Sequence record: MH992122.1
Direction: 5' to 3' (one strand)
DNA from: Escherichia phage OLB35
DNA length: 64,000 bases
The notes below the pieces were generated by a model, which saw only the letters and a list, made by a program, of their open reading frames with translations, was not told where the DNA came from and searched no databases. The position numbers were made by a program, and so were the translations under genes. The first letter of the stretch is position 1. Each line of letters starts with the position of its first letter. This document shows, in pieces, positions 1 to 42,335 of this stretch.

Positions 1-12
1 TGATATGTTTTC
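1..12 (-). CDS. 5' end of an internal-protein-like gene (MKTY...), continues beyond window start
   Basis: RC of 1-12 reads ATG AAA ACA TAT; an early promoter lies just upstream at 46-75; only 4 codons are in the window. Confidence 0.3.
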
Positions 13-45
13 ATTTTTTGTTTCCTTGTTTGTTTTGATAGAGTA

Positions 46-75
46 ATTATACCATATTAATACTTAAGCGTAAAC
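46..75 (-). promoter_or_regulatory. T4-type early (sigma70-like) promoter
   Basis: minus strand reads GTTTAC (70-75), 18-nt spacer, TATAAT (46-51). Confidence 0.5.
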
Positions 76-81
76 AATTTA

Positions 82-339
82 AGCTTTACCGCCAGAAATA
101 ATTCCGAAGTTGTTAAAATCGTATCCAATATCGTCAACATCTACTTTAGGATTTACTACAACATAAGCAATTTCACTACGTTTTGCATAGGTGTTGATTT
201 CTTTACCATCGCCACCTAAGAAAGAATACCCATTACGTTTTAATGAGCCAAAGTCTTCGGCATCACCAATTTACTTCGATAGCAGCTTTCTGTTCCGCAG
301 ATAATGTACTTCAGTGATAAACTCTTGATATGTTTTCAT
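82..339 (-). pseudogene. internal-protein-like gene with capsid targeting sequence, interrupted
   Basis: starts MKTYQEFITE; in-frame TAA at 271-273; the downstream segment IGDAEDFGSLKRNGYSFLGGDGKEI...GIISGGKA continues in the same frame; the short segment before the stop reads sensibly in another frame (LSAEQKAAIEVN), suggesting paired indels. Confidence 0.45.
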
Positions 340-345
340 TTTTCC

Positions 346-759
346 TTAGTAAATTGATTTACCATAGTATTTGTACCAAGTCGGACGTTGAGCAATTTTT
401 TCATCTAAGCGTGCTTGACTTATCGCAATGGACGCTTCGGACGGGACATAATTATTACGAAATTCGGCAGGGATGTCGGAAATATCCTGGACTGTCGTGT
501 CCTTGATTTTGAAACCACGTTTCAAACATTCAGCGATTAGCTCGATTTGACGTAAACGTAAAAATTCGAGTTTGTCGTAAAAGAATGTTACGTGACCTGT
601 GCCTAAGATAAATGTTGGAGAGATTTTAAAATCCTTTACACATTTACCATTTTGAACATGTTTACGGACTGCACCAAATACGCGTGGTAATTCACGATAC
701 TCAGCCATAAGATGTTGGTCGGACAGTTCAGAAACAAGTGTTAAATTGATACGAGTCAT
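346..759 (-). CDS. denV: endonuclease V, pyrimidine-dimer DNA glycosylase
   Basis: [12 protein letters not shown]...[16 protein letters not shown]... closely matches remembered T4 DenV; about 138 aa. Confidence 0.9.
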
Positions 760-786
760 AATTTCCTCCAAGTAGTTGATGAATGT

Positions 787-816
787 ATAGTATCAAAACT
801 CTTGGAGGAAGTAAAC
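787..816 (-). promoter_or_regulatory. early promoter upstream of denV
   Basis: minus strand GTTTAC (811-816), 18-nt spacer, TACTAT (787-792). Confidence 0.45.
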
Positions 817-817
817 A

Positions 818-1099
818 CTATTTTTCTGAAGCGCCTGAAATATATTTTTCAAGACGTTGTTTCATCAGCGAGCCGTTCTTAGCGATTTCTTCCGGTTTAT
901 CGCACATACGCAACAAGGCTTCAAGCTTAGCGATATCACTGGTGCGCTCAAATTTGCGAGTATCTATCTTACTAGCAAGTTCAGAAATACGTGCTAATAG
1001 ACTTTCAGCTTCAACCAAAGCTGCACCTAGCTTAGTTGCAAATGTGTCAGTAGCTTCGTTAAGAATAGATTCTGATAAAAATTCACTATATGTTTTCAT
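818..1099 (-). CDS. internal protein (ipII/ipIII-like) with capsid targeting sequence
   Basis: starts [10 protein letters not shown] (CTS-like, L-x-E site); lies between denV and e as the ip genes do in T4; ATG overlaps the e stop. Confidence 0.55.
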
Positions 1100-1557
1100 A
1101 TATACGCTTTCCAAGTTCCTGTTTTAAATGTTGAGATTACGCGTTTCGCGCGATTAGGTGTCTGACGATACCATTTAGATTGGGCTAGATTTACTGCCGC
1201 TTCATCCCAACGTTTCTGTTGAAGCATACGAAGAGAATTAGTAAAACCAGCGACGCCTGCTACACCCATTTGGAAGACCATATTGACCAATGCACACCGA
1301 CGAACTGCATCTAAAGAATCATATACCGGTTTAAGTTTAGCATTAACGTCTTCATTAAATAGCTTTTCAGCCTCATCAAGGGTAATTGTACCGTTGCATT
1401 TACGACCGATCATTCTGTCAAGTTCAGCTTTAGCTACGGCTAAAGACGGGTTCTTTGTTACTAAATGGCCTATGCCAATCGTCCAAAAGCCTTCAGTGTC
1501 TTTGTATAAAGTCAGTCTAAGACCTTCGTCATTACGAAGCATTTCAAATATATTCAT
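1096..1557 (-). CDS. e: lysozyme (endolysin), T4 e family
   Basis: [15 protein letters not shown]...TIGIGHL...; T4 lysozyme homolog with a roughly 10-residue deletion relative to T4. Confidence 0.95.
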
Positions 1558-1591
1558 AATACCTCCCACGTTTATAGGAGGTATTTATTAC

Positions 1592-2050
1592 TTATATGAC
1601 GGTAGTGAGCACCTTATATAATGATTTGCCCATTACATATTCCCATTGAGAAGGTTTAATTAAAGCGTATGCATCAAATTCAGGAATCTGTCGTCCGTCT
1701 GGGAATGTATGATAGGAATTACAAACACTGTTTCTGAATTGCTCGTGCTCTACAGGGATGGTATATAGGAACAGATGAATATTCTTATTGTCTGAGTAAT
1801 GATGTTCACCTAGGTCTTTCAGGAAGGCAGGGTCATATTGTGTAAACCCAGTTTCTTCTTCGCATTCACGAATAGCGGCTTCAATAGGAGATTCGCCAGG
1901 TTCGACACGGCCTTTAGGAATATCCCACCGATGAGCTAAAGAACCTTTAGGACGAGAACCAGTTACACGGCCCATGAATAACTCTTTATCTTCGGTAAGG
2001 AAAATAATACCGGCTGATAGCTCTTTCACTTTATTTTTCTTACTCATCAT
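1592..2050 (-). CDS. nudE: Nudix hydrolase
   Basis: Nudix box GRVEPGESPIEAAIRECEEETG; 152 aa; position next to e as in T4. Confidence 0.85.
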   Translation of the reverse strand: MMSKKNKVKELSAGIIFLTEDKELFMGRVTGSRPKGSLAHRWDIPKGRVEPGESPIEAAIRECEEETGFTQYDPAFLKDLGEHHYSDNKNIHLFLYTIPVEHEQFRNSVCNSYHTFPDGRQIPEFDAYALIKPSQWEYVMGKSLYKVLTTVI

Positions 2051-2276
2051 CTCGGTCCCATGATTTGGCCATTAATTCGGACATAAATTCTTCAATGCGC
2101 GTTTCTTTAGATGGACTTTCACTATTAGAGACCGCAAGTTTGTAATCTGCAATAGGACAGAACATATCAAGGTCCATATTAAGATCGTCTTTGATTTTTT
2201 CTTCTGACACATCTTTATCATATGTGTACAGATAACTATCACATGATTCTGATTTAATGTAAATTGCTATACTCAT
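2040..2276 (-). CDS. hypothetical protein
   Basis: ORF with likely ATG at 2276 (MSIAIYIK); overlaps neighbours by a few nt. Confidence 0.4.
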   Translation of the reverse strand: MSIAIYIKSESCDSYLYTYDKDVSEEKIKDDLNMDLDMFCPIADYKLAVSNSESPSKETRIEEFMSELMAKSWDRDDE

Positions 2277-2764
2277 CTCAAATTCCTGCATTCGGTAATA
2301 AAACGTTCAACTTCATTATTCTTGGCCTTTATCTTGTCTTTACGTTCCTGTAAACTACTTTTAACAAGATTAATAATGATGCCTATAGTACCTCCACCAA
2401 TAATACCACCAATAATACTTACGATAGTAGATGCTAATAAGATAGCGATAATATCTAATATAGCAAAGGCACTTACTTTAGTACTAAAAAACCACACCGA
2501 TGGTACAAATATAATCCATCCTGTTATCCATTGGCACTTATTGAAAAACTTTTCAAGCTCAGCTTGAGTTGTTCGTATTACTTCATCGATAGGTTGATAT
2601 CCATTAATGTATCTGTTCACGATAATACCTGCTGGTTTGTCGATTTTAAATGCTTGACATTGGTGTTTCACTAAATAAGATGGACATCCTGTCCAATCTA
2701 CTGAATAGTATGAAATACCTTCGTTGCCATCGTCTATATTAGACCAATATGTTTTGTTAATCAT
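2273..2764 (-). CDS. hypothetical membrane protein
   Basis: 163 aa, long hydrophobic stretch (GWIIFVPSVWFF...IIGGIIGGGTIGIII); C-terminus FITECR is part of the junction motif. Confidence 0.5.
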   Translation of the reverse strand: MINKTYWSNIDDGNEGISYYSVDWTGCPSYLVKHQCQAFKIDKPAGIIVNRYINGYQPIDEVIRTTQAELEKFFNKCQWITGWIIFVPSVWFFSTKVSAFAILDIIAILLASTIVSIIGGIIGGGTIGIIINLVKSSLQERKDKIKAKNNEVERFITECRNLR

Positions 2765-3450
2765 TACCAGCCTTCCATAGGGAATTCCAGATAAACTTGG
2801 GCATTGACACGAATTTCATTGGTGATCTTTTTAACTCGGTCTGTATTACGAGATACACGTCCGAACCAACGCCATCCATTACTAATTGCACGAGAACCAG
2901 TGTGCCATGTTTGCCAATCGAACTGAAGAAGAGTACGGTCTGGAGCTTCCCATTTCTCTAGTTCGCCTTTTTCAATTTTTTCGAGGACTTCTTTGTGCCA
3001 TTGGCGATAGATAAGTTCGCCATCAGGAATCTGACTGAACTCTGCAGTTCCTGTTGCAAAATGAGTAGGACACACGTCAGCGTTAACAAGACCAAGAATA
3101 TGTTCAGACAAATAGCGAGGATTGTCATAGTCAGGTTGTCCTGCAGTAATAAAATGTTGACCAACCGGAATATCCCGGCGCGGTACATCATCATGGTGAT
3201 AACCTGGAATAGCAGGATACCAACCAGGCATCAGCATATGAACCCGAGAATCAAATACAACATGTTGATTAGTCCAATCAATTGGGAGATTGACAATAAA
3301 GCTACGAGTAATAGGACCGCCGTTATCCTAAGCAAATTTTAAACTACAGTTAAAGAACATAGGCTCGTTCTTGATTTGATCATTAGAAATACCGCCGGCA
3401 AAACCACCTACTGCACGAGCTTGACTATTAAACACTTTAGAACTATTCAT
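2764..3450 (-). pseudogene. hypothetical protein interrupted by in-frame amber codon
   Basis: ATG at 3450 with SD GAGGA; in-frame TAG at 3328-3330 after 40 codons; same frame continues to 2764 (the 157-aa ORF of the track). Confidence 0.4.
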
Positions 3451-3451
3451 A

Positions 3452-3757
3452 TTATTTTCCTCGACATTCTTTAATGAAATTTTCTAGATTGGTAGATTCA
3501 ATAGCTTTTTTACGAGCTTCTGCGTGTTCTTCTTCAGACAATTTACATTTATAATTAACCCAGACGTTATGGTCAAAACTAGTCGTGGCATATAATAACA
3601 AAGCCCCGACGAATAATAAAAATGGTGATAAGAATACAAAACCAGGAACACCATCCATATCGTAAGCCTTTTGTAATACTGCAACAGAAAGAGCTACGTA
3701 AAAAGGTGATACAAATATAGTTAAAAGACCAATTCGGTTGGTTTCGCCTAATTTCAT
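3452..3757 (-). CDS. hypothetical membrane protein
   Basis: 101 aa, two hydrophobic segments; C-terminus NFIKECRGK is part of the junction motif. Confidence 0.5.
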   Translation of the reverse strand: MKLGETNRIGLLTIFVSPFYVALSVAVLQKAYDMDGVPGFVFLSPFLLFVGALLLYATTSFDHNVWVNYKCKLSEEEHAEARKKAIESTNLENFIKECRGK

Positions 3758-3777
3758 AATATTCTCCTCATGTTTTA

Positions 3778-3815
3778 ATAGGACTACTATAACATAGTCC
3801 TATAATTGTGTAAAC
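3778..3815 (-). promoter_or_regulatory. early promoter in a stem-loop (PeSL-like)
   Basis: minus strand GTTTAC (3810-3815), 18-nt spacer, TATAGT (3786-3791); inverted repeat ATAGGACT/AGTCCTAT flanks the -10. Confidence 0.5.
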
Positions 3816-3827
3816 AGTTTTGCGAAA

Positions 3828-4784
3828 TTATTTGAAAGGTTTTACCATATGGAAATTTTGTTTAAAACGTTTTACATAATCGTCATGTCCTAAGCTTTGG
3901 TACATACTTACAACTTTGCTGTAGTTTTCCCAAGCGTATTCACGGAACCAGCCTGACGTGATTGAAGTACAGACTTTTTCTAATGCCATCATAAAACTAT
4001 CACGTGGATGGATTTCAAAGTTATTAGGAATCTGAGAACGTTCTAACGCTAGTACACATGATTCTTCGTATACGCCGGCTAATTTGACCATTTCTGGTAA
4101 TGATTCGAACTTCTCGCGTGAGGTCATGACTTCAGAACCATCTTTCATATAAAATGTATACGCTGGACGGTCTGTTAGTGCAATGGCTTCGTGAATAGTA
4201 TCATGGTCATACGTATAGATGTCATCTTTAAAGAATGCGCTTTTAGAAGTGTCAAGAACTGGGTGAGCATAGTTCAAGGTTTCTTTCTGGCGTTTCAGCA
4301 TAATTTCAGTAAGTTCATCGTTCAGTGTAACACCTTTACCACGAAGATACTGAATATGGTTCATAGTCTTTAAAAAGAATGGATTATTTTTCTTGAAACG
4401 ATGAGACATCTTAATTGCAAGACACATCTCAGGAGTTGCCCAGTAAAACCCGTTCAAACGGTCTTTAGTCAAATTTTTCTTGGCGTATTTTAAAAGGTCA
4501 TAAGAAGACGTGAAATCTTCAGGAGTGAGTTCACCGACTAATTCACGGACATTAGTGATTGCCGGAACAATATATGCTTCAAAATGAGTTTCGCGTCCAT
4601 TATGGAAGCATTTGAAAACTTGGACATCAGGGTTATCTTGGTGAACATATACACCCATCATTTGATTTTTGAATACATTCCAAGAACCTTGGTCCGCAAT
4701 AAAGTCCCAATCACTATTTTTGATAGCGCTAGAATCAATAAGGCCGTGATAGTGAAGTGCACGAGAACCAATAACTAACATCAT
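3828..4784 (-). CDS. hypothetical protein, possible minimal nucleotidyltransferase fold
   Basis: 318 aa; N-terminal GS...SDWD resembles the GS-x(n)-D-x-D NTase motif (spacing longer than typical); no confident homolog recalled. Confidence 0.55.
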   Translation of the reverse strand: MMLVIGSRALHYHGLIDSSAIKNSDWDFIADQGSWNVFKNQMMGVYVHQDNPDVQVFKCFHNGRETHFEAYIVPAITNVRELVGELTPEDFTSSYDLLKYAKKNLTKDRLNGFYWATPEMCLAIKMSHRFKKNNPFFLKTMNHIQYLRGKGVTLNDELTEIMLKRQKETLNYAHPVLDTSKSAFFKDDIYTYDHDTIHEAIALTDRPAYTFYMKDGSEVMTSREKFESLPEMVKLAGVYEESCVLALERSQIPNNFEIHPRDSFMMALEKVCTSITSGWFREYAWENYSKVVSMYQSLGHDDYVKRFKQNFHMVKPFK

Positions 4785-4812
4785 AATATTTTCCTCGGAT
4801 TAATTCATTAAC

Positions 4813-5064
4813 TTAAATTTCGCGACATGCGATATTATATTCATCCCAGAGGTCGTCATGTGAAGCCTCTACCAATGGAACGATTGTGCCGTTTATGTCT
4901 TCATTATAAGGGCAAATTGTACAGTGCGCATCTTCGAATCGGATGCCTTTGTGTTCAGATTTTTTATAACGCATATCGAATATCTTTGCAAACTTTTCAC
5001 GAGTAATAGTTTTAGCAACTACTTCTGTTCCTATACTTTCGTAATAAACCATTGTTGTCTCCAT
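4813..5064 (-). CDS. hypothetical protein
   Basis: 83 aa ORF downstream of the PeSL-like promoter at 5074-5110. Confidence 0.45.
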   Translation of the reverse strand: METTMVYYESIGTEVVAKTITREKFAKIFDMRYKKSEHKGIRFEDAHCTICPYNEDINGTIVPLVEASHDDLWDEYNIACREI

Positions 5065-5073
5065 TTAATTTGA

Positions 5074-5110
5074 TAGGACTACTATAACATAGCCCTATCT
5101 TGTTGTAAAC
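5074..5110 (-). promoter_or_regulatory. early promoter in a stem-loop (PeSL-like)
   Basis: minus strand GTTTAC (5105-5110), 18-nt spacer, TATAGT (5081-5086); GATAGGACT...AGCCCTATC inverted repeat. Confidence 0.5.
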
Positions 5111-5114
5111 TGTT

Positions 5115-5312
5115 TTAGCAAGAATAACTAGATGATACCCAGCCTTGAACAGTAATACTATTATTTGATAACGAGATTGCGTCCTGGAGATTCAGACCTG
5201 CATTATCTTCAATCCACAATGTAACTTCTTCACGCTCTTCGGTTGCAATCTGGAACAGGTTTTCTAGAGCAGCTACTGCCGTACGTACAGCACAATCTAA
5301 TTCACGAGACAT
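5115..5312 (-). CDS. small protein, paralog family member P3 (C-terminal GWVSSSYSC)
   Basis: 65 aa; conserved C-terminal tail shared with the ORFs at 5322-5595 and 5605-5910. Confidence 0.5.
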   Translation of the reverse strand: MSRELDCAVRTAVAALENLFQIATEEREEVTLWIEDNAGLNLQDAISLSNNSITVQGWVSSSYSC

Positions 5313-5321
5313 ATGATTTCC

Positions 5322-5595
5322 TTAACAAGTGTGAGAAGATGCAACCCAACCACCATCTTCAAGGCTCAAGTTGTAGTCGTATTGGTAAACGTCGGCCCAT
5401 TCAGCATAACCGTTTTTTTGTACAACGTTCAAGATCGGCTTTAAGATGTCCTGGTGAATGATAGGTTCCACCCATGCCATAAGCTGGATACAAGTTGAAT
5501 GTTGTGTTTTGTTTATTAGCAATTTCTTTGGCAGCCTCAATAGCTGCATAGATTTTTGCTACAGCTTCAGCCAGTTCGGTTTGTTCTTTAGACAT
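5322..5595 (-). pseudogene. paralog P2 with frameshift at a homopolymer
   Basis: N-terminal frame (5401-5595) and C-terminal frame (5322-5549, ending GGWVASSHTC) differ by one nt; the switch maps to a 7-nt homopolymer at plus 5413-5419. Confidence 0.45.
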
Positions 5596-5604
5596 AATGA
5601 TTCC

Positions 5605-5910
5605 TTAGCACAACGCAGAAGACGAAACCCAAGCACCTTCAGTAATAACGTAACCATTACCTTCACGCTTAACATCGCCACCATTATTTTCAATTTCATC
5701 TTTCATCCACTGGGATACGATTTCACCCTTAGGATAATAAGTACGACCGCTACCATAATCACCTACAGAAAATGATACTGCATATTGGTCTGCGATCTTT
5801 GTTGCTTCTTCTTCGATACGTTCAGCTTGATTCAGAAGTTTATAAATTGCATCTGAAGCGGATTTGGCATCATTAAACTCTGGTACTTTAATTTCAATAA
5901 TCTTACTCAT
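5605..5910 (-). CDS. small protein, paralog family member P1 (C-terminal AWVSSSALC)
   Basis: 101 aa; shares MSK start, YGxGxTY and NGY motifs and the C-terminal tail with P2. Confidence 0.55.
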   Translation of the reverse strand: MSKIIEIKVPEFNDAKSASDAIYKLLNQAERIEEEATKIADQYAVSFSVGDYGSGRTYYPKGEIVSQWMKDEIENNGGDVKREGNGYVITEGAWVSSSALC

Positions 5911-5942
5911 TTTCTACATTCCTTAATAAAGTTTTCGATTGT

Positions 5943-6332
5943 TTCATTTTCACGTTTAGCTAGGAGTTCATTATAACTAATCATTTGAGAAGCGTAAACA
6001 GCATAAATTCAGTTAAGGCTTTTGCATCTTATTTCCTTAACGAATTCCATAGCTTCTTCATATTCATACTTTTTAACAGCTTCGATTGTTTCATTTTCAC
6101 GTTTAGCTAGGAGTTCATTATAACTAATCATTTGAGAAGCGTAAACAACGCCGTCAATAAGAAATCCAACTAATCCAAAGGCAAATCCCATGCCAATACT
6201 CATAATAAAAATTAGAATGTTCTCACCAAGAGAAGGCCAGCATAAATTCAGTTAAGGCTTTTGCATCTTATTTCCTTAACGAATTCCATAGCTTCTTCAT
6301 ATTCATACTTTTTAACAGCTTCATCATACTGA
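5943..6332. repeat. nested direct repeats A (about 66 bp) and B (about 83 bp) in order A-B-A-(93 bp)-B
   Basis: A at 5943-6009 and 6090-6156; B at 6009-6091 and 6250-6332, near identical by eye. Confidence 0.8.
6009..6203 (-). CDS. small membrane protein (chimeric: unique N-term + repeat A + repeat B)
   Basis: 64 aa; C-terminal 22 aa identical to the C-terminus of the ORF at 6248-6640. Confidence 0.4.
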   Translation of the reverse strand: MSIGMGFAFGLVGFLIDGVVYASQMISYNELLAKRENETIEAVKKYEYEEAMEFVKEIRCKSLN

Positions 6333-6640
6333 GCTTGGGCTTTTGCGCACTGAACTTTCCATTCTCTTAATCGGGCTCTGTGATGACGTCCTTGGTACCA
6401 ATATCCCATCCAGTTAATAGGCATTAATAAAAACGGTACAATAAGTGGTGCGACGAACATTAATGAAAATGCTGCATCAGACGATATAACTTCACTAGAA
6501 TCTAAAACGGCTCCTATAATCATAAAGATTAAAAATGCTAAAGCTAAAATAGGGCCAAATAGTACTTCATTTGGGATTAATTTACGCTTGTATTCATACG
6601 CCCAGGGCTTACTTGGCATGTATAGGGTTGGCTTTGACAT
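6248..6640 (-). CDS. hypothetical membrane protein
   Basis: about 130 aa from ATG at 6640 (the track start at 6670 is TTG); two hydrophobic segments; C-terminus encoded by repeat B. Confidence 0.45.
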   Translation of the reverse strand: MSKPTLYMPSKPWAYEYKRKLIPNEVLFGPILALAFLIFMIIGAVLDSSEVISSDAAFSLMFVAPLIVPFLLMPINWMGYWYQGRHHRARLREWKVQCAKAQAQYDEAVKKYEYEEAMEFVKEIRCKSLN

Positions 6641-7211
6641 ATTCTCTACATTCCATAATAAATTGCTCAAGGATTAAATTGTTAGTGAAATTAGGACTAA
6701 CAACCATAGTTTCATAAAGCGCATCAATAGCACTTAAAGCATCAACTCTCTTAAGCAAAGGCTTGCCTTCATACATAGTTTCAGAATCGACGATTAACGT
6801 AAAGTAGTATTTTTTATTATCGACTAGAACTTCTGTATCGATATAAAACATATTAGTCCTCAGAAGCTTATCTCTAAAACCATAATAATCTTCAGAGCGT
6901 TCGCTGATATATTCCCATTCAGTGTTTAAACAACAAACAGACCACGTAGGAGCAACGAAATCAGTGAATCTAATATCATGGTCTGCAACTAGTTTAGCAA
7001 TAGCTCCGATATCATGAATCATAATACCTGGGGCTAATAAAGATTTTCTGCTATGGCTAGCCGTTTTCTCGGTGGTCTCATAAGAAGACGACCAGTACCA
7101 TTTACGTCCGGTTGCAACATATCGTAATGAATCAACTAAAGACGTAGGTGGATTTACCTTATCTCGGAACTCTTCGAACATTGAGTCAATATCATTATTT
7201 TGGTTTCGCAT
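6609..7211 (-). CDS. hypothetical protein
   Basis: about 200 aa from ATG at 7211 (MRNQNN) with SD AAGGAG; C-terminal region FIMECR is part of the junction motif. Confidence 0.5.
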   Translation of the reverse strand: MRNQNNDIDSMFEEFRDKVNPPTSLVDSLRYVATGRKWYWSSSYETTEKTASHSRKSLLAPGIMIHDIGAIAKLVADHDIRFTDFVAPTWSVCCLNTEWEYISERSEDYYGFRDKLLRTNMFYIDTEVLVDNKKYYFTLIVDSETMYEGKPLLKRVDALSAIDALYETMVVSPNFTNNLILEQFIMECREYVKANPIHAK

Positions 7212-7228
7212 GTTAACTCCTTTATTAT

Positions 7229-7252
7229 CCAAAAGGAGGACCGGAGTCCTCC
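7229..7252 (-). terminator. hairpin followed by T-run on minus strand
   Basis: stem GGAGGAC/GTCCTCC, loop CGGA, then TTTTGG on the minus strand; directly precedes the RBS of the next gene. Confidence 0.4.
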
Positions 7253-7260
7253 GTATTATT

Positions 7261-7854
7261 TTATTTCAAAGAGTTAATATATTCTTGTACATCAGCAGAA
7301 GTGGTTTCGACACCGGCTGGAGTGCCATTGAACGTTTCAACACGAGTCAGAGTGTCTTCGATATCAACCTTAGTCAGTGCAGCAATTTCAATCACATCAT
7401 CAGCCGTAGAGATACCAAGGGCATTGGCTGCTCGAGTTTCACGAATGTATTCGAGTTTGATTGCCAGATTCTGACGAGCATCATCAAGTTCAACCACCTT
7501 ACGAGCAATTTCAATTCGCATAGCGGCATAACCGTCAGCTTTTGTATTAAGTTGTTCGGCAGTTCGACGATACAGAAGACCAAGCTTAGCATGCATGGTA
7601 ACATCTTGTCCTTCAGCCAGGAGCTTACGAATTTCACGTTCCTTAGAAGCGGCTTGCTTGTTCTTTTCATTAACAAGTTCGCGAATACGTTTTTCTTCAT
7701 TAATAGATTTAACAGAAGCCGTTTTTAGTTCTTTGATTTGGGTAATCAACTTATCTGCAGCTGCGTTATACTGTTCTTCGACAGTCAGATTTTTAGCCAT
7801 AGCAGTACCCAGTTTAGTGCGGATGAATTCAACAAGTTTCTTCAGTGTGTTCAT
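7261..7854 (-). CDS. coiled-coil protein, PspA/IM30-like (tentative)
   Basis: about 197 aa, heptad-rich, charged; loose resemblance to E. coli PspA by eye; ATG at 7854 with SD AAAGG. Confidence 0.5.
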
Positions 7855-7924
7855 ATTATTACCTTTCAATTGGTGGTTTATTATCCAATGAGAGCATTAT
7901 ACTCTGCTCTCAAGAGTTTGTAAA

Positions 7925-8152
7925 TTATTTTTTAATCAAATTGACATAAAACTTGGCGTCTTCCGGGTGCATGCCTTCGCAGTATTCTTCAACCATGAAC
8001 TTCTTAACAGCTTCATAAGGACCACTCAGATTAAGCTCAGTTGTCCAAAACTTGGAATCTTGGGCTGAATCGATACGAACTTCAGGGTGTCGGTTGCGAA
8101 TAACTTCTTCGGTGTATTCATAATCAACGACATCAATACTAACTTTAGCCAT
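7925..8152 (-). CDS. hypothetical protein
   Basis: 75 aa; preceded by module M copy 1 (promoter plus conserved leader with GAGGAG). Confidence 0.45.
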   Translation of the reverse strand: MAKVSIDVVDYEYTEEVIRNRHPEVRIDSAQDSKFWTTELNLSGPYEAVKKFMVEEYCEGMHPEDAKFYVNLIKK

Positions 8153-8161
8153 TTTGTTTCT

Positions 8162-8635
8162 CCTCTGTAGTTGATAAGTCTTAACTATAGTATCACCATC
8201 ATTGGTGTTTGTACATCATTATTTTTAATTTTTCCAACTTAACAACCTTCAGCCAAGATACAACAGAGTTTTTATCTGAGGATTCAAATTCAGGCATTGG
8301 ACTTTCACCGCGAATAACTTCTTCGGTGTATTCATAATCAACGACATCAATACTAACTTTAGCCATTTTGTTTCTCCTCTGTAGTTGATAAGTCCTATAG
8401 TATCACCATCATTGGTGTTTGTACATCATTTATTTTTAATTTTTCCAACTTAACAACTTGTAGTGTCCTTCATTCATACGTGGTTTATCCCAAGAAATAC
8501 TAATATATGATTCGCCATCAATAGCTTTTTCTTCACCACCACCACTGATAGTCCTCTGTAGTTGATAAGTCCTATAGTATCACCATCATTGGTGTTTGTC
8601 AACTATTATTTTTAATTTTTCCAACTTAAAACTTG
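8162..8635. repeat. three tandem copies of a roughly 90-bp promoter/leader module (M) separated by partial gene duplicates
   Basis: module CCTCTGTAGTTGATAAGTC...TATAGTATCACCATCATTGGTGTTTG...TTTTTAATTTTTCCAACTTA at 8162-8255, 8376-8456, 8549-8635; 8300-8375 duplicates the 5' end of the 7925-8152 gene; 8457-8530 duplicates the 3' end of the 8626-8916 gene. Confidence 0.8.
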
Positions 8636-8916
8636 TAGTGTCCTTCATTCATACGTGGTTTATCCCAAGAAATACTAATATATGATTCGCCATCAATAGA
8701 AGTCGCCGGGTTTTTCTCTACCGTAAGACCTTCACTTTCCAGCCATTCAATAGTATTTGCGCATAAATCTGAAGAACACCTCATCGGAAACTGGCAAGAT
8801 TTTTCACCTTTAGATGCAGCGTTATACATCTTTTCTAAAATACGCTTTTGCACGTTTTTAAAAATGGTTTCAGCAGATTCTTCAGATTTTTTATTCAGTT
8901 CAGTATAAAGACTCAT
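8626..8916 (-). CDS. hypothetical protein
   Basis: about 96 aa from ATG at 8916 (MSLYTELNKK) with SD GAGGAG. Confidence 0.45.
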   Translation of the reverse strand: MSLYTELNKKSEESAETIFKNVQKRILEKMYNAASKGEKSCQFPMRCSSDLCANTIEWLESEGLTVEKNPATSIDGESYISISWDKPRMNEGHYKF

Positions 8917-9042
8917 AATATTCTCCTCATTAATAGGGCTCATAATATCTCAATCATTAGCTCATTTACGTATTTATAGTAACAGCATTCTCTGAGAGAT
9001 TCAAACTAAAAAGCCCCAACCTTTTGGCTAGGGTACAGAATG

Positions 9043-9507
9043 TTATTTGATTTGTTTAGCAGACCAAATGCGGTCTTTAATAAGTTTTTGGATATCTTCA
9101 ACATACTCAAGGCTATGAGCGTGAGGATTATCTTTGAAGCTATGTGCTCGTGCCAGTTTCTGGCCTTCAGTTTTGATTACCAAAAGTTCTTTAAGAATTG
9201 CTTCATACTTAGAAATAATTCCTTTGGCGATATTTTTTTCTTGAGCTGCTTTAGGGCCCGCTTTTGGTGCTGGTGCTTTACCTGTAGCTTTCTGGAACAA
9301 TTCACCTGATGCAGCTAGGCTTTTAAAAACTCGGCTAACAGTATTAGCATTAGTAAAACCTTCGGCTTTAAAATCTCTAATAAAACGGAAACGTTCTTCA
9401 TCAGAGGCGTCTTTGTAAGAATATTTACCTGCTTGAATTGCTGCAATCGCAGCGGCTTTTACATCTGAACTAGATTGTTCAGTCAAAAATTCTGCATATG
9501 ATTTCAT
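9043..9507 (-). CDS. internal-protein-like protein with CTS-like leader
   Basis: starts MKSYAEFLTE (compare T4 IP leader MKTYQEFIAE, L-x-E cleavage site); 154 aa, Lys/Ala-rich. Confidence 0.5.
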   Translation of the reverse strand: MKSYAEFLTEQSSSDVKAAAIAAIQAGKYSYKDASDEERFRFIRDFKAEGFTNANTVSRVFKSLAASGELFQKATGKAPAPKAGPKAAQEKNIAKGIISKYEAILKELLVIKTEGQKLARAHSFKDNPHAHSLEYVEDIQKLIKDRIWSAKQIK

Positions 9508-9551
9508 GTTACTTTTCCTAAGTTAATTAACTTATCTATTTATTATTATGC

Positions 9552-9580
9552 AAAAAAGCCCCAACCTTTCGGAAGGGGCT
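9552..9580 (-). terminator. rho-independent terminator (minus strand)
   Basis: stem AGCCCC/GGGGCT followed by a T-run on the minus strand; 3' of the tRNA / small-RNA region. Confidence 0.5.
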
Positions 9581-9631
9581 AAGCCTTGCGGTAACCTTGT
9601 CGGGGTTCCACCTGCTAAGGCAAGTGTTTGT

Positions 9632-9723
9632 ACGAAACGCCGGGATTCGAACCCGGTTATTAAGCAGTTGACGCTACTCAATATTTTTAAAAGGCCATAT
9701 CTCGACCATATCCGAACGTTCCG
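9632..9723 (-). ncRNA. tRNA-like element or small stable RNA (possible T4 RNA C/D analogue)
   Basis: minus strand has a canonical T-arm CCGGG-TTCGAAT-CCCGG followed by a 7-nt strand that pairs with CGGAACG about 85 nt upstream; no standard D or anticodon arm could be folded by hand. Confidence 0.25.
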
Positions 9724-9886
9724 TCAAAAACGCTACTCGGCTTACGGCAAAGATATTTCCTCGAATCGATAATTCGGTGCGCCGTTTCTGCTGTGATAGT
9801 AAAGAATCAGAACACAGTAAAACTGTGGGAGAAACTATACTCCAGGGAACATCAGTCCGACGACTTACCGGTAGCGACCCGGTTTC

Positions 9887-10231
9887 TCATTTTGGCATAT
9901 CATCAATTTGCTCTCGACGCCGACGCCATAGATTAATCGCTTCATTAACACATTCGGCGTTTGGTATATGACGGCAATAATATAATGATTCGCGTTTCTG
10001 GAACCGATGTTGCAACGGGATTTCGTTTAAAAGATCTTTACGATCAAAGTATTCAAAACTAGTTAACCCTGAACGGTTTTTAATGAACTTCCAATGTCCG
10101 AATTCGTTTTGAACATAGATGTAATCGGCATGCTGATACAGCGAATTAATCAACCGGTCGGAAATAACTGTATCCTGTTCGTTAAAATAAAACGTTAAAT
10201 CATGAACTACCAGATAAATATTACCTTTCAT
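9887..10231 (-). CDS. hypothetical protein
   Basis: about 114 aa from ATG at 10231 with SD GAGGAAA; the track start at 10279 would overlap tRNA-Arg. Confidence 0.45.
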   Translation of the reverse strand: MKGNIYLVVHDLTFYFNEQDTVISDRLINSLYQHADYIYVQNEFGHWKFIKNRSGLTSFEYFDRKDLLNEIPLQHRFQKRESLYYCRHIPNAECVNEAINLWRRRREQIDDMPK

Positions 10232-10249
10232 ATTTTCCTCACTTGAAGT

Positions 10250-10326
<77 letters not shown>

Positions 10327-10329
10327 AAT

Positions 10330-10404
10330 TGGTGACCCTGGCTGGTTTCGATCCAGCTACCTATCAGTTATGAGCTGACAGCTCTCCCATTGAGCTACAG
10401 GGCC
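10330..10404 (-). tRNA. tRNA with anticodon CAT (Met-type; likely the AUA-reading tRNA-Ile as in T4)
   Basis: hand-folded cloverleaf: acceptor GGCCCTG/CAGGGTC, D stem GCTC/GAGC, anticodon loop CTCATAA, T stem GCTGG/CCAGC; 75 nt, CCA encoded. Confidence 0.75.
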
Positions 10405-10466
10405 TAAATAACTTTCTATTATGAAAGGCACTTTAGAGCACCTTTGGTAATAGAGGGTATGAATTA

Positions 10467-10492
10467 ATAATAACACATAATTCTTAAAGCAA
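10467..10492 (-). promoter_or_regulatory. candidate MotA-dependent middle promoter upstream of the tRNA cluster
   Basis: minus strand TTGCTTTA (MotA-box-like) then 12 nt then TATTAT. Confidence 0.25.
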
Positions 10493-10999
10493 ATCAATCA
10501 TTTTAACGGTTGGCAAAACGATTTCTTCTTCAATATAAGCAAATTCGACACGTTCAACTACACGCAAGAAATCGTAATCATAGTATTCAGAAGCATAGCC
10601 AAGAATATCAATAAGTCCTTGAGATATCTCATCGCCTTTCACAAAGAACAGGTCGAATACGCGGGCTTCGTCTTCTTCAGATTTATCACCAAGGTCTACT
10701 TCGATGCCAAAGACCTTTTTAATAAATTCCGGTTGGAGTTGGTCTGAGAACAGTCCTTCAACCAGATATTCGTAGATAATAAGCGAGCAACGACCGAATG
10801 GTGTATTACCGCAATAACGTTCGGCTTTGGTGCTAGAATGACGGCTCTTAAATTTCTTCAAGAGATATTTAAACTGTTGGAGCTCATGCTCTTCCACTTC
10901 AAACAATGTTTTGGTTTTATAGTTGTCACCATCACTTTCATAGGTAGTGACATCAATTACGTAGCCCTTAGGAATTGTACTGCCTAATCGAATATTCAT
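10484..10999 (-). CDS. hypothetical protein
   Basis: 171 aa ORF, tightly packed with upstream ORFs. Confidence 0.5.
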   Translation of the reverse strand: MNIRLGSTIPKGYVIDVTTYESDGDNYKTKTLFEVEEHELQQFKYLLKKFKSRHSSTKAERYCGNTPFGRCSLIIYEYLVEGLFSDQLQPEFIKKVFGIEVDLGDKSEEDEARVFDLFFVKGDEISQGLIDILGYASEYYDYDFLRVVERVEFAYIEEEIVLPTVKMIDLL

Positions 11000-11003
11000 T
11001 TAA

Positions 11004-11294
11004 TCACCGTACCATATTAATGTAATTATATTCAATGCAACGTAATTTCAAAGGATTCTTGAAAATATCATATTCAAGAGGGCCTTTTTCTGTTTCAATA
11101 AAGAAATCAAAGTTAACTGTGTTAAATTTATCATCTTCACAGAGTAATTTAACCTGTGAAGACGAACGGTCAATGTAAACCTTTTCAACTTCAAAATATG
11201 TTAAAATGCCATAATCATCGATCAATGCTTTAGCTGCACGTTGATCGCTTTCGTATCCATTCTCGACAGATTTTACTTTAGCATAAAGAATCAT
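11004..11294 (-). CDS. hypothetical protein
   Basis: 96 aa ORF; start overlaps the stop of the upstream ORF. Confidence 0.45.
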   Translation of the reverse strand: MILYAKVKSVENGYESDQRAAKALIDDYGILTYFEVEKVYIDRSSSQVKLLCEDDKFNTVNFDFFIETEKGPLEYDIFKNPLKLRCIEYNYINMVR

Positions 11295-11653
11295 GAGTGT
11301 TCCACCGCTTCAAAAGTATGTGCATTTACAATCTGGTACCAGTCAAAATTTTCTTCAGCATTTTTGTAGATTTCACGAAGAGCTTCAACAGTTTTTCCTG
11401 TAGCAACAAGATCATCAATACCACCAAGAGGATAACAGTCATAACCAGCAAACAGAAGGAAATTAATAGTTTCTGTAGGTTCTGGATGCAGTGTACCATT
11501 GTCATCGACTACTTCAAAGAACATATAACCAGGCGATTTAGATTTAATCCAAGCCCATGCTTGAGCTGCTGAATCAAATGGTCTGCGTATCAAACGACAA
11601 TCAGGGTCTTTAGAAGGATTTGCTTCAAAATCTGCATATACATGATATTTCAT
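11291..11653 (-). CDS. hypothetical protein
   Basis: 120 aa ORF. Confidence 0.5.
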   Translation of the reverse strand: MKYHVYADFEANPSKDPDCRLIRRPFDSAAQAWAWIKSKSPGYMFFEVVDDNGTLHPEPTETINFLLFAGYDCYPLGGIDDLVATGKTVEALREIYKNAEENFDWYQIVNAHTFEAVEHS

Positions 11654-11839
11654 TTACTCACCTTTTGCAATTTTATCCATAACGATAGCGATTAAGCCGA
11701 TTAGAAATGCTACTACCAATGAGATAGAGTTTTCAGTTGTTGTCAGTAGTCCACAAATGAATCCTACAAACATCGAAAAGCTAAAAGCCATTGAAGCAAT
11801 TACTACAGCAACATTACGAATCAGTTCAGCGCGTTTCAT
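11654..11839 (-). CDS. small membrane protein
   Basis: 61 aa, mostly hydrophobic (MAFSFSMFVGFICGLL...LVVAFLIGLIAIV). Confidence 0.45.
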   Translation of the reverse strand: MKRAELIRNVAVVIASMAFSFSMFVGFICGLLTTTENSISLVVAFLIGLIAIVMDKIAKGE

Positions 11840-12270
11840 TTTATTTCTCCTTTACTCATTTTGTTTTGATAGGACTACTATAACATATCCATATAGGCTT
11901 GTATATCTTTATTTCAAATATATTGCGTATTTTTTATAGCCACCAGGCTCGTGTCGAAGACCTTTATCATTCGCAAAACGTTGAATGTTATTGAACTGGT
12001 TTTCATCGAATGATGATTTAATCTTAGCTTTAGATCCTTTAGTTATAGAAATAAACATCTCGGAAGACCCTTTCTTAAAGTCTGATGCAGATACTTCAAC
12101 ACCGTTCTTAGCAAGTGACCTCAGAATTGCATCTGCGTACACTTCATATGTGTCGAATATGAAAAAGTTTTGTTAGCTACCAAGCGTGATATATTGAGAA
12201 TCAGTTCAGCGCGTTTCATTTTATTTCTCCATTTACTCATTTTGTTTTGATAGGACTATTATAACATAGT
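11818..12270. repeat. direct repeat pair (about 70 bp each) carrying a PeSL-like promoter, leader and first 7 codons (MKRAELI)
   Basis: copies at 11818-11890 and 12198-12270 differ at a few positions. Confidence 0.75.
11909..12213 (-). pseudogene. hypothetical gene with probable frameshift
   Basis: ATG at 12213 (MKRAELI...) stops after 32 codons; the 77-aa track ORF (11909-12142, GTG start, no SD) is in another frame; frames merge at a 5-nt homopolymer near 12162-12166. Confidence 0.35.
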
Positions 12271-12287
12271 CCTATCGGCATGTAAAC
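12258..12287 (-). promoter_or_regulatory. early promoter in a stem-loop (PeSL-like)
   Basis: minus strand GTTTAC (12282-12287), 18-nt spacer, TATAAT (12258-12263); flanking inverted repeat GATAGGACT/AGTCCTATC. Confidence 0.5.
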
Positions 12288-12290
12288 TAC

Positions 12291-12578
12291 TTACAGAAGA
12301 GTTTTTGCAATAATTTTAAGCTGAGCTACAGAAATGTGCTTAGCTTTAAACAGTGCAGTCTCTTCAGCCGGAGAGATAACAATAGTAGCGCCATCTTTCT
12401 TAGCAGACCATCCATCCCCTAAGTAAACAGTACCTTTTACTTCTTCGCCGTCAGCCAGACTAATCATTGGTTTGCCCTCACGTCCTTTATTTGCTTTAAT
12501 AACTTCGGAAGTAAGGGTTGCTTCAGTCAGAGTAGAAACGTTAGCATCAGGTGATATAAATTCTTTATAGGTTTTCAT
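12291..12578 (-). CDS. internal protein I-like (CTS-bearing)
   Basis: 95 aa, starts MKTYKEFIS...; sits immediately next to 57B as ipI does in T4. Confidence 0.55.
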   Translation of the reverse strand: MKTYKEFISPDANVSTLTEATLTSEVIKANKGREGKPMISLADGEEVKGTVYLGDGWSAKKDGATIVISPAEETALFKAKHISVAQLKIIAKTLL

Positions 12579-12623
12579 TTTATTTCCTTGAGGCTGTTTA
12601 TTTGATAGGATGATAGTAACACA

Positions 12624-13395
<772 letters not shown>

Positions 13396-13399
13396 TTTA

Positions 13400-14134
13400 T
13401 TACCTTAAGATTTTTTCAATTTTATAATAAAGCTCTTCTAACGAGCCGTCGTTTGTAATAACTAAATCGCCTTCTTCAATAGGCAACCCAGCTTCTGTAA
13501 TATGTTTATCAGTGGATTCCGTACCAGAGCGAACCACATGAATAACTGTAGCACCCATCGCTCTAGCGGTTTCCATTTCATGGACTTGGCGTGTATCGGT
13601 TACAACATAGTAATCGAAATCACTTCCAATATAATCCATATAGTTTAATGCAAAAAGCTTAACCCAATACATACGGTCAAATAAATTAACGACAACATCC
13701 GTACCGAGGGCTTGCATAAGACGGCGGATCGACCATGTGTCGTTGATATTATTTATAGCTTCACGCAGGGCTTCATATGGTTTAATATCTAGATATGAAT
13801 ATCCACCTTCTAACGATGATAATACTTTAACATTATTAATTGGTAAATATTGACTTTGTAAATAAATTAGCGCTTCTTCCAATAATTCAATAACATCCAA
13901 CTTATTGAGATTTAATGGTGTTTCACGGTCGTATCCAATGCCTTCAAAGTATTCGTATTTCAACTCTGTGAATACATCAGGATTTTCAGCATGTCTACGT
14001 CCCCAGGCTATTGCTAGAGCGTCTTTAATTGGATATGCTAATTGGTATTTTACGGATTTAAAGTTTGAATTGATGTAATCAGCAGTAGTGTCTTTACCAC
14101 TACGTTTGATGCCACTTAAAAAGATTAGCTCCAT
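13400..14134 (-). CDS. 1: deoxynucleoside monophosphate kinase (gene 1)
   Basis: 244 aa, P-loop GIKRSGKDT; size and position match T4 gp1. Confidence 0.85.
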   Translation of the reverse strand: MELIFLSGIKRSGKDTTADYINSNFKSVKYQLAYPIKDALAIAWGRRHAENPDVFTELKYEYFEGIGYDRETPLNLNKLDVIELLEEALIYLQSQYLPINNVKVLSSLEGGYSYLDIKPYEALREAINNINDTWSIRRLMQALGTDVVVNLFDRMYWVKLFALNYMDYIGSDFDYYVVTDTRQVHEMETARAMGATVIHVVRSGTESTDKHITEAGLPIEEGDLVITNDGSLEELYYKIEKILR

Positions 14135-39425: not shown

Positions 39426-40997
39426 ATGAAATTTAATATCTTAAGTTTGTTTGCTCCATGGGCAAAAATGGACGAACGTGATTACAAAGACCAAGAAAAA
39501 GAAAATTTAGAATCGATCACCACACCAAAATTGGACGACGGTGCGAAAGAATACGAAGTATCTGAAAATGAAGCACAGCAAACATATAATGCTATGTTTC
39601 AGAGAATGTTCGGTAGCCAAGAACCTGGGCTCAAATCAACCCGTGAATTAATCGATACGTATCGAAATTTGATGACGAACTATGAAGTGGATAATGCAGT
39701 CTCTGAAATAGTTTCCGATGCTATCGTATATGAAGATGATACAGAAGTCGTTTCTATAAATTTAGACAACACAAAATTTAGCCCAAATATCAAATCAATG
39801 ATGTTGGATGAATTTAACGAAGTGTTAAATCATTTATCTTTCCAACGTAAAGGTTCAGACCATTTTAGACGTTGGTATGTGGATTCTCGAATTTTCTTCC
39901 ATAAAATTATTGACCCTAAACGCCCTAAAGAAGGTATTAAAGAGCTTCGTCGTTTAGACCCACGTCAAGTTCAATATGTCCGTGAAGTTATTACAACCAC
40001 TGAAGCCGGTGTTAAAATAGTCAAGGGTTATAAAGAATATTTCATTTATGACACATCACACGAATCTTATGCTTGTGATGGTCGCATATATGAAGCTGGC
40101 ACAAAAATAAAAATCCCTAAAGCCGCGATTGTTTATGCCCATTCTGGTTTAGTTGATTGCTGTGGTAAAAATATCATTGGTTATTTGCATCGGGCTATTA
40201 AGCCGGCGAACCAATTAAAACTTCTTGAAGATGCCGTCGTAATTTATCGTATTACTCGTGCTCCAGATCGTCGTGTATGGTACGTTGATACAGGTAATAT
40301 GCCTTCAAGAAAAGCAGCAGAACATATGCAACATGTTATGAATACGATGAAAAACCGTATTGCATATGATGCTACTACAGGCAAGATTAAAAACCAGCAG
40401 CATATTATGTCGATGACCGAAGATTATTGGTTACAACGACGTGATGGTAAAGCAGTAACAGAAGTTGATACATTACCGGGTGCAGATAATACCGGAAATA
40501 TGGAAGATGTACGTTGGTTCCGTAATGCGCTTTATATGGCTTTACGTATTCCTATTACCCGTATTCCAAGCGACCAAGGTGGTATACAGTTTGATGCTGG
40601 TACTTCTATTACACGAGATGAATTGTCATTTGGTAAATTTATTCGTGAGCTGCAACATAAATTTGAAGAGATATTCCTAGACCCGCTTAAAACTAATTTA
40701 ATTCTTAAAGGAATTATTACAGAAGATGAGTGGAATGATGAAATAAATAATATTAAGATAAAATTTCATCGGGATAGTTATTTCTCGGAATTAAAGGATG
40801 CTGAGATTCTGGAGCGTCGCATTAATATGCTTCAGATGGCCGAACCATTTATTGGTAAATATATTTCTCACAGAACAGCTATGAAAGATATTCTTCAGAT
40901 GTCTGACGAGGAAATTGAACAAGAGGCTAAGCAAATTGAAGAAGAGTCGAAAGAGGCTCGTTTCCAAGACCCCGACCAAGAACAAGAGGATTTTTAA
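39426..40997 (+). CDS. 20: gp20 portal vertex protein
   Basis: 523 aa (T4 524). Confidence 0.9.
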
Positions 40998-41236
40998 TGG
41001 ACGATTTAATTCAAGCTATTAAATCAAACGACCTCGTTGCTACTCGAAAGTTTTTTGAAAGTGCAATGGCAGAAAAAACGGTTCGTTTGATTGAAGCACG
41101 CAAAGCAGAAATCGCTTCTCAATTTTTGATTGAAGGCGAAGAACCTGAAGAAGAAGAAAAGAAAGCTAAAGCTTCGGAAGACGACGCTGATGAAGGCGAT
41201 GACGACGAAGACGAAGATGATGAGGACGATGAATAA
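40997..41236 (+). CDS. 67: gp67 prohead core protein
   Basis: 79 aa with poly-acidic C-terminus; position. Confidence 0.7.
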
Positions 41237-41661
41237 TGTATCTTATCCCTGAATCTTATGAATTGGTACTCGAAAATGTCGAAGCACTTATTCCTGAAGC
41301 ACAGGGCCGAATCGATGCATTGTCTTCTGCTCTCGATATTGACGATATAAATACTATTATCGAGAACATGCTTGAAACTGAAACGGATTTAGCTGTTGCA
41401 ATGGCTTCCATTATTAATGAAGAGCAGTTAAATGAGTTTATCGTTAAACATGTTTCTTCTCGTGGTGAAGTCACCCGCACTAAAGACCGTAAAACTCGTG
41501 AACGTAACGCGTTCCAAACAACCGGTCTTTCTAAAGCAAAACGTAGACAAATCGCTCGTAAGGTCGTTAAAGCTAAAAAAGCTAACCCTTCAGGCCAAGT
41601 TAAAGGCATGCGTAAGCGTAAAAAAGCTCTTAAACGTCGTAAAGCATTAGGATTAAGCTAA
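41236..41661 (+). CDS. 68: gp68 prohead core protein
   Basis: 141 aa, same length as T4 gp68. Confidence 0.7.
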
Positions 41662-42302: not shown

Positions 42303-42305
42303 ATA
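42298..42305 (+). promoter_or_regulatory. late promoter TATAAATA (gene 22)
   Basis: exact TATAAATA overlapping the gp21 stop. Confidence 0.5.
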
Positions 42306-42335
42306 ATAATGTAATCTAAACCACAGGACACTAAA

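Follow-up and report, generated by a model that had tools for sequence, protein, structure and literature searches.

A set of genes in the 64,000-nucleotide (nt) sequence of Escherichia phage OLB35 (record MH992122.1; the whole stretch is called the window here) encodes proteins that begin with a leader of the capsid targeting sequence (CTS) type known from the internal proteins (IPs, encoded by ip genes) of phage T4. Very probably these are Mosigvirus ip genes, with products that would be packaged, cleaved by the prohead protease gp21, injected, and active against host nucleases. One of them, at 9043-9507, belongs to the family phrog_2280, which we incline slightly towards regarding as an unrecognized CTS-led, gp21-processed, injected antidefense family at a third ip locus, present in ~500 T-even-type phages and directed at a target other than those of Ip1-3, possibly an arabinosyl-/glucosyl-cytosine nuclease. 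The analysis covered sequence features: leaders, cleavage motifs, protease and core genes, and homologies. CTS-led variable ip genes are textbook T-even biology and the phenomenon is already known; hypervariable loci of this kind date from a 1994 description (Repoila et al., taken from its citations in PMC12373910 and PMC3012670), and sequences identical or nearly identical to the Ip5-like protein (818-1099) and the 9043-9507 protein are already in public phage genomes. The additions are the exact identity of each gene, the anatomy of two dead genes, and the case for phrog_2280 as an unannotated ip family.

A six-frame search of the 64 kb with the regular expression MK[TS]Y.EF[ILV] gave exactly four matches, all of them at starts of open reading frames (ORFs; first nucleotides 339, 1099, 9507, and 12578), and all leader-bearing ip genes of the window lie on the minus strand. 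Relaxed leader patterns gave no further matches in the whole-window six-frame scan. The number of matches expected from amino acid composition is 0.0003, 300 shuffles produced zero, and a degenerate DNA version of the motif was observed 4 times against 0.02 expected from dinucleotide-preserving shuffles. A 10-column hidden Markov model of the leader was built from seven independent named Ips (T4 IPI, IPII, and IPIII; RB32 Ip4, Ip5, Ip7, and Ip9) and searched against all 3,410 stop-to-stop six-frame segments of the window; ranks 1 to 5 were the five starts given in the earlier note, with E-values of 2e-6 (339), 2e-5 (12578), 8e-3 (1099), 1.7 (9507), and 1.9 (the fragment at the window edge). 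The regular expression, shuffle, and profile statistics together rule out chance or low-complexity matches. With profile E-values of 2e-6 to 8e-3, the leaders at 339, 12578, and 1099 are significant alone; those at 9507 and in the edge fragment fall short of significance and therefore depend on other evidence, so that the concern about a similarity too short for a proper profile search is settled for three leaders and persists for these two. Y4 and F7 are present in all four complete leaders. The start MK(T/S)Y(x)EF(I/L) reported in the earlier note was thus recovered as four exact leaders at ORF starts plus an MKTY at the window edge, and its coordinates held apart from small corrections: the edge fragment occupies 1-14, with its EF(I/L) outside the window.

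In T4, packaging needs no more of IPIII than its first ten residues (PMC9026906, PMC3012670). Within the CTS, targeting depends on residues 4 and 7 and processing on residues 8 and 10, and L/I-x-E is the motif after which gp21 cuts (PMC9026906). Each IP is retained in the head at ~360 copies, which leave together with the DNA on ejection (PMC9026906, PMC3012670). By analogy with T4 IPIII, the first ~10 residues of the window proteins would act as the CTS, with Y4 and F7 used for targeting and L/I8 and E10 for processing, and would attach the protein to the gp22/gp67/gp68 scaffold core during prohead assembly. At the L/I-x-E sites listed in Table 1, the predicted gp21 cut follows E19 in the IPI ortholog, E10 in the 9043-9507 protein, and E10, E15, or both in the Ip5-like protein. 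After these cuts the mature parts would be basic, with isoelectric points (pI) of 8.1 to 9.7, the exception being the Ip5-like protein cut at E10 alone (pI 6.3). The basic mature protein would remain in the head with the DNA, be injected together with it, and, once in the cell, immediately inhibit a host defense nuclease in a stoichiometric manner. The gp21 protease, the gp22/67/68 core, and the ip genes are all encoded within the same 64-kb window; genes 67 and 68 were assigned by position, between portal gene 20 and gene 21, and by composition.

Table 1. Features of the ip loci and of the prohead gene cluster in the window
Feature	Position	Strand	Basis and details
ipII-type gene start, 4 2/3 codons (MKTY..), ATGAAAACATATCA	1-14	-	ATG at 14-12; sequence and CCU7 synteny
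Sigma-70/T4-early-type promoter-like site, TTTACG-17-TATAAT, TG-extended	46-74	-	Consensus scan; 5' of ipII start
Dead chimeric ip gene	82-339	-	Alignments with CCU7, RB69, ECO26.1, and Mizar; ORF translation; phrog match
Ip5-family internal protein, 93 amino acids (aa)	818-1099	-	phrog_3499; L-S-E at 8-10, family-invariant L-N-E at 13-15
Intrinsic-terminator-like hairpin downstream of 9043-9507	9014-9033	-	Near-identical hairpin upstream of the gene
Candidate internal protein, 154 aa, leader MKSYAEFLTE	9043-9507	-	phrog_2280, E = 3e-53; L-T-E at 8-10
Late-promoter-like motif AATAAATA	9537-9544	-	One mismatch to T4 TATAAATA; 37 nt 5' of the 9507 start, just past terminator hairpin
Leaderless Ip7::Ip9-type remnant	11909-12142	-	phrog_2667 positions 30-83 and phrog_7673 positions 56-90
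IPI ortholog, 95 aa, 19-residue leader MKTYKEFISPDANVSTLTE, 76-aa mature IPI*	12291-12578	-	Pfam PF11634, PDB 2JUB; L-T-E at 17-19
Prohead core genes 67 and 68 and scaffold gene 22, flanking gene 21	40997-43148	+	Separate bases (text and rows below)
gp21 prohead serine protease, leader-removing enzyme	41661-42302	+	Pfam Peptidase_S77, E = 1e-106
Scaffold gene 22	42336-43148	+	Pfam T4_CASP, E = 1.5e-89

Homology and position identify the gene at 12291-12578 as the IPI ortholog. Its product matched Pfam IPI_T4 with an E-value of 1e-49 (166.7 bits against a gathering cut-off of 25, profile positions 1-76 of 76) and the solved IPI* chain with an E-value of 2e-41; the latter alignment begins at residue 20, right after the L-T-E, so the predicted cut after E19 agrees with the solved IPI* N terminus. 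The T4 and window proteins are equal in length and share the 19-residue leader ending in L/I-T-E, the 76-aa mature part, and the slot between trna.4 and 57B. The leader diverges more (12/19 residues identical, by subtraction) than the mature part, which differs from T4 IPI* by five substitutions and is 93.4% identical in protein and 86% in DNA, above the 65 to 80% DNA identity to T4 of the genes beside it. T4 IPI* blocks GmrSD of E. coli CT596 (PMC9026906, PMC3012670), and given the 93.4% identity the IPI ortholog of the window likely inhibits a GmrSD-type enzyme.

The fragment at the window edge, M-K-T-Y plus two bases, was judged to be the start of an IPII ortholog by synteny with CCU7 only. 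In CCU7, which is 98% identical here, the gene continues as a 100-aa protein of phrog_7857 that is 93% identical to T4 IPII (Ip2, inhibitor of GmrSD-ECOR21/BrxU-type enzymes). The position differs: ipII of T4 lies between denV and e, whereas the window gene, of which 14 nt are in the window, lies upstream of denV on the vs.8 side. The promoter-like site 5' of it forms part of an intergenic repeat (families D1 and D10).

The case from sequence for packaging, cleavage, injection, and antinuclease action is strong for the IPI and IPII orthologs, and their likely targets are type IV restriction enzymes of the GmrSD family, as in T4. T4 Ip1, Ip2, and Ip3 have one GmrSD variant each as target and give no cross-protection, the activities of Ip2 and Ip3 having been shown in 2025 (PMC12373910); a view of IPI as the sole internal protein with a known antirestriction role is out of date. 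Mosigvirus DNA carries mono- and di-arabosylated 5-hydroxycytosine and no glucosyl-hydroxymethylcytosine (PMC13326640, PMC13390438). BrxU, a member of the GmrSD family, nevertheless restricts one Mosigvirus, NicPhage, and in vitro it cleaves the arabinosylated DNA of that phage (PMC13390438). NicPhage matches 1-13500 of the window at 94%, and GmrSD-type enzymes are thus a relevant threat to the window phage. This raises the question of why a near-T4 IPI* is found in a phage with arabinosylated DNA.

The gene at 818-1099, ortholog of RB69 ORF127c, matched the phrog_3499 'internal head protein' profile over its full length (E = 2e-46, positions 1-85 of 85), and in tblastn, with 90% of the query aligned, its product was 47 to 52% identical to the Ip5 proteins of T2, RB32, VR26, and GiZh (~48% for T2 and RB32). 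Ip5, known from T2, T6, RB15, RB32, and RB70 and with the same leader type, belongs to the Ip4-Ip13 series attributed to Repoila et al. 1994. The RB32 protein is shorter (85 aa against 93 aa) and its gene replaces ipI at 57B, whereas the window gene sits in the denV-e locus, translationally coupled to lysozyme gene e, the stop codon of which overlaps its ATG (ATGA). Among homologs, residues 9-12 vary while L-N-E-A-T at 13-17 is invariant, so the mature N terminus is probably A16. The RB69 reference ORF127c (732-1028 of the region examined) has a degenerate leader, MKTYMNFYQN, in which E6, L8, and E10 are lost and Y4, F7, and the downstream L-N-E are kept; it offers a natural test case for leader residue requirements.

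Internal-protein identity was accordingly borne out by homology for three of the five genes (IPI, Ip5-like, and IPII through its CCU7 position), and the 'unknown specificity' assigned to all of them applies to the Ip5-like and 9043-9507 proteins only. For these two the best guess at a target would be further modification-dependent nucleases, and the case from sequence for packaging through to antinuclease action, of moderate strength with the Ip5-like protein, is weaker with the 9043-9507 protein.

The 9043-9507 gene lies outside both classical ip loci. The denV-e side is represented by 1-14, 82-339, and 818-1099, which flank denV, and the trna.4-57B side by 12291-12578 and the 11909-12142 remnant; 9043-9507 marks a third locus, with the e.8 region on one side and the tRNA genes on the other. 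Its predicted mature part has 144 aa and a pI of 9.7. In order, the cassette consists of a terminator hairpin, the late-promoter-like motif, a Shine-Dalgarno sequence, the ORF, and a second terminator hairpin, and the near-identical hairpins on both sides make it a cassette bounded by direct repeats; the RB32 record describes the homolog as 'flanked by 34 bp imperfect direct repeat'. In the corresponding position, this RB32 homolog has a perfect TATAAATA, while the PhAPEC2 gene and the paralog ORF149c have AATAAATA. A motif search found no perfect TATAAATA 5' of any ip start in the window; one-mismatch late-promoter motifs lie upstream of starts 9507, 339, and 14, and early-type promoter-like sites upstream of the ipII and ipI starts, all of them motif or consensus matches only.

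The family, phrog_2280 of 'unknown function', also includes RB32ORF133c and RB69ORF149c. It was found by tblastn in 511 phage records, mostly Tequatrovirus at 60 to 80% and Mosigvirus at >95% identity, and 'hypothetical' was the sole name in the best 30 of the 511 records. An exhaustive HMMER search of the mature part (9043-9477) against 1.84 billion representative proteins returned eight clusters, all from T4-like phages, to which the family is therefore confined; none of the eight had a known function, and of the roughly 300 cluster members those inspected that had a name were all 'hypothetical' or 'uncharacterized'. PhAPEC2 and CCU7 carry two paralogs in tandem at this locus, a further point in favor of an internal protein. 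In the window ~1.2 kb, comprising the ORF149c ip-type cassette and e.8, is missing at 8943-9043 relative to CCU7 and PhAPEC2, with the breakpoint just downstream of the 9043-9507 terminator, and a tblastn search of the window for what might be left of ipIII or of the ORF149c cassette matched leaders alone. The CTS-like leader, L-x-E site, late-promoter-like motif, and basic mature part suggest that 9043-9507 probably encodes an unrecognized internal protein.

The shared N terminus could instead be mainly a DNA-level recombination or translation-initiation module, with some of the genes, above all 9043-9507, encoding unpackaged cytoplasmic late proteins. The 30-nt leader is indeed a four-copy direct-repeat family (D7; 70 to 80% DNA identity), one crossover fell inside or beside it in the 82-339 chimera, the 9507 leader scored an E-value of 1.7 against the named Ips, and among the entries inspected the 9043-9507 family was never annotated as a virion protein. 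Yet at this DNA identity Y4, F7, L/I8, and E10, the residues that matter in T4 (PMC9026906), are kept in all four leaders, which argues for constraint on the peptide. Full-length 9043-9507 homologs that are only 48 to 62% identical likewise start MLKFNEFLAE, MLEYSEFLKE, or MKFKEFLIE, retaining the aromatic/F/L-x-E pattern while the rest drifts, and a late-promoter motif directly after a terminator fits a virion component. The module alone is quite unlikely to account for these genes, and a leader acting as a CTS is preferred.

Pfam and NCBIfam gave no match for the Ip5-like and 9043-9507 proteins, and word-indexed sequence searches with both returned close phage homologs only. AlphaFold2 models of the two, built on shallow alignments, were all-helical, with a predicted local distance difference test score (pLDDT) of 71 to 73 and a predicted template modeling score of 0.35 to 0.41; the 9043-9507 model begins with a three-helix part, continues through a disordered K/P/A-rich linker at 77-90, and ends in a long helical hairpin. 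Foldseek found nothing in the PDB at E ≤ 0.001 for either model. The best matches, to ferritin and myoglobin, had E > 3 and were discarded as meaningless. Comparison of the predicted models is uninformative on function, as is common for small antidefense proteins. Of the homology and structure prediction proposed for the mature domains, homology placed the IPI and Ip5 families and the models added no informative match.

Several points weigh against packaged antinuclease proteins as the general reading of these genes. Packaging, cleavage, and injection are deduced from sequence alone. The literature yielded no report of the phrog_2280 family in virions, and no virion proteome of any Mosigvirus covering these ip proteins was found there. 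Taken alone, the 9507 leader does not reach significance in the narrow profile, and models with pLDDT 71 to 73 are moderate and lack a structural match. The T4 IPI*/GmrSD-CT596 pairing may be altered under arabosyl DNA. Finally, when ip4-10 of T4-like phages were tried against a set of GmrSD variants, none of these was reproducibly inhibited (PMC12373910), which makes an anti-GmrSD guess weak for the proteins other than the IPI and IPII orthologs.

That ip4-10 have no detectable GmrSD target (PMC12373910) would also suit proteins that are packaged and mainly structural, serving charge neutralization, DNA condensation, or prohead shape. The mostly basic predicted mature parts (the Ip5-like protein excepted if cut only at E10) agree with such a role, as do the ~1,000 IP copies per T4 head touching DNA phosphates and the more frequent polyheads of IPIII-negative mutants (PMC3012670, PMC9026906). 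It is nevertheless unlikely to be the main one: ip genes are dispensable, differ in content among near-identical phages, and are easily lost or broken, which is an arms-race pattern; for each of the three T4 IPs a specific GmrSD target is known (PMC12373910); and IPI* is more conserved between genera than its flanking genes. With counterdefense as the preferred role, internal proteins are a preloaded weapon of T-even phages that enters the cell together with the DNA and can therefore block modification-dependent nucleases before phage gene expression. As outlined in PMC12810830, P1 DarA/DarB/Hdf share this logic, being defense inhibitors delivered with the DNA that act before restriction, and T7 Ocr is a nonpackaged analog made at once to the same end; these proteins are unrelated in sequence and have no CTS/gp21 system, and those of P1 are much larger.

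The gene at 82-339, described in the earlier note as disrupted, is so, with a TAA (271-273) in frame after codon 22, and alignment indicates that the cause is a chimera of two ip genes rather than a plain frameshift. Its first ~65 nt, from the ATG to ..GCTATCGAAG and including the CTS, match the RB69 ORF123c-type ip gene, which is intact in phage Mizar (MKTYQEFITEVTLSAEQKAAIEE..), and the remainder is the body of the RB69 ORF125c/Ip7-type gene (phrog_2667), intact in CCU7. The chimera junction was found in no other record among 50,697 phage records. One difference from the ORF123c type is a single-base deletion (GTTACA to GTACA), as might be expected if assembly or sequencing had introduced the disruption into a gene that the real phage carries intact. 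Restoring the base, however, yields MKTYQEFITEVTLSAEQKAAIEVNW-stop, a 25-residue product out of frame with the downstream body, so a sequencing slip was rejected as the source of the stop. The ~65-nt segment was swapped from another ip gene and is no homopolymer slip, and the other lesions of the window are a substitution (amber codon) or a clean deletion (cassette). An artefact is thus highly improbable, and 82-339 is read as a dead chimera.

A sixth ip-derived gene, overlooked in the earlier note, is the leaderless remnant at 11909-12142, in which Ip7 residues ~29-72 are fused to Ip9 residues ~58-90 by comparison with RB32. It is preceded by a duplicated 5' fragment of trna.4 (12121-12240). 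Repeat D11 (93% identity) is a duplication, at 11830-11877 and 12205-12262, that takes in the promoter, ribosome-binding site, and first codons of trna.4, and its two copies bracket the remnant; the RB32 record notes a '43 bp direct repeat' around Ip7 and Ip9. Likeness to Ip7/Ip9 of RB32, K3, and RB15 is thus seen in this remnant and in the Ip7-like body of 82-339, the difference being that both window copies are nonfunctional, one lacking a leader and the other stopping after codon 22. Directly upstream of ipI in the sense of transcription, 57B (12710-13165, minus strand) matched Pfam Acb1, a phosphodiesterase acting against the cyclic oligonucleotide-based antiphage signaling system (CBASS), with an E-value of 7e-59, so that antirestriction and anti-CBASS genes adjoin.

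The hypervariability of ip loci was seen directly in a comparison of five Mosigvirus genomes. Upstream of denV, RB69 has ORF125c, ORF124c, and ORF123c; PhAPEC2 an internally deleted 125c and an ipIII type; CCU7 125c and an ipII type; Mizar 123c only; and the window the dead 123c/125c chimera and ipII. In the regions compared, leader-bearing genes numbered 6 in PhAPEC2, 6 in CCU7, and 3 in T4, and in RB69 the stretch upstream of denV alone holds three in a row. Cassette borders carry repeated promoter/terminator elements (D1, D2, D10, and D11), similar to those noted in the RB32 record. The ip loci probably evolve by cassette exchange, with crossovers at the conserved leader and at these elements; the repeats at leader and flanks fit the established view of crossover points. 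The debris of turnover in the window, namely the dead chimera, the leaderless fusion, and the missing ORF149c cassette, all lies within 13 kb, a clear snapshot of the process that introduces no new principle. The content of ip cassettes helps predict host range on wild E. coli and matters for phage therapy cocktails, and phrog_2280 is a widespread candidate for the next injected inhibitor. A five-copy 68-nt intergenic family was also present (3764-3831, 5059-5126, 11855-11922, 12236-12303, and 12591-12658); its elements contain T4-early-type promoter-like sites (GTTTACA..TATAAT/TATAGT), and some copies precede ip genes.

The window phage is a Mosigvirus, an RB69-like T-even phage. In a megablast of 1-13500 against the 50,697 phage records, 919 matched, the closest being Escherichia phage CCU7 (98% identity, 96% coverage), followed by SHSML-52-1, PhAPEC2, phiC120, and ATK47 at 94 to 95% identity. 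PhAPEC2 and RB69 are classified as Mosigvirus on their records, and NicPhage is named as one (PMC13390438). The G+C content of the window is 37.9% and its gene order is T4-like (denV, e, nudE, e.x genes, tRNAs, trna.2-4, ipI, 57B, 57A, 1, 3, and 2), followed by baseplate and head genes, including portal gene 20, 67, 68, 21, 22, and capsid gene 23.

Further differences were observed around the ip loci. Lysozyme gene e (1096-1569, minus strand) has nine codons fewer, in frame, than in RB69, ECO26.1, and CCU7 (..NEDV[DKAVRGILG]NAKLKP..), giving 157 aa by the ORF list against 166 aa in RB69, or 153 aa from the annotated ATG against 162 aa in CCU7. The RB69ORF132c homolog (2764-3450, minus strand) has an amber codon at 3328-3330 (TGG to TAG relative to CCU7), a substitution with no indel that splits the 228-aa gene into ORFs of 40 and 157 aa. 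At 10250-10404 (minus strand), ARAGORN called two tRNA genes only, Arg-TCT and Met-CAT; T4 and RB32 have eight, and the PhAPEC2 annotation lists three on the opposite strand. Local tandem duplications of 91 to 100% identity at 5934-6322 and 8096-8699 have yielded paralogous small ORFs, of which 6009-6203 and 6248-6670 have a common C terminus and 7925-8152 and 8199-8366 a common N terminus.

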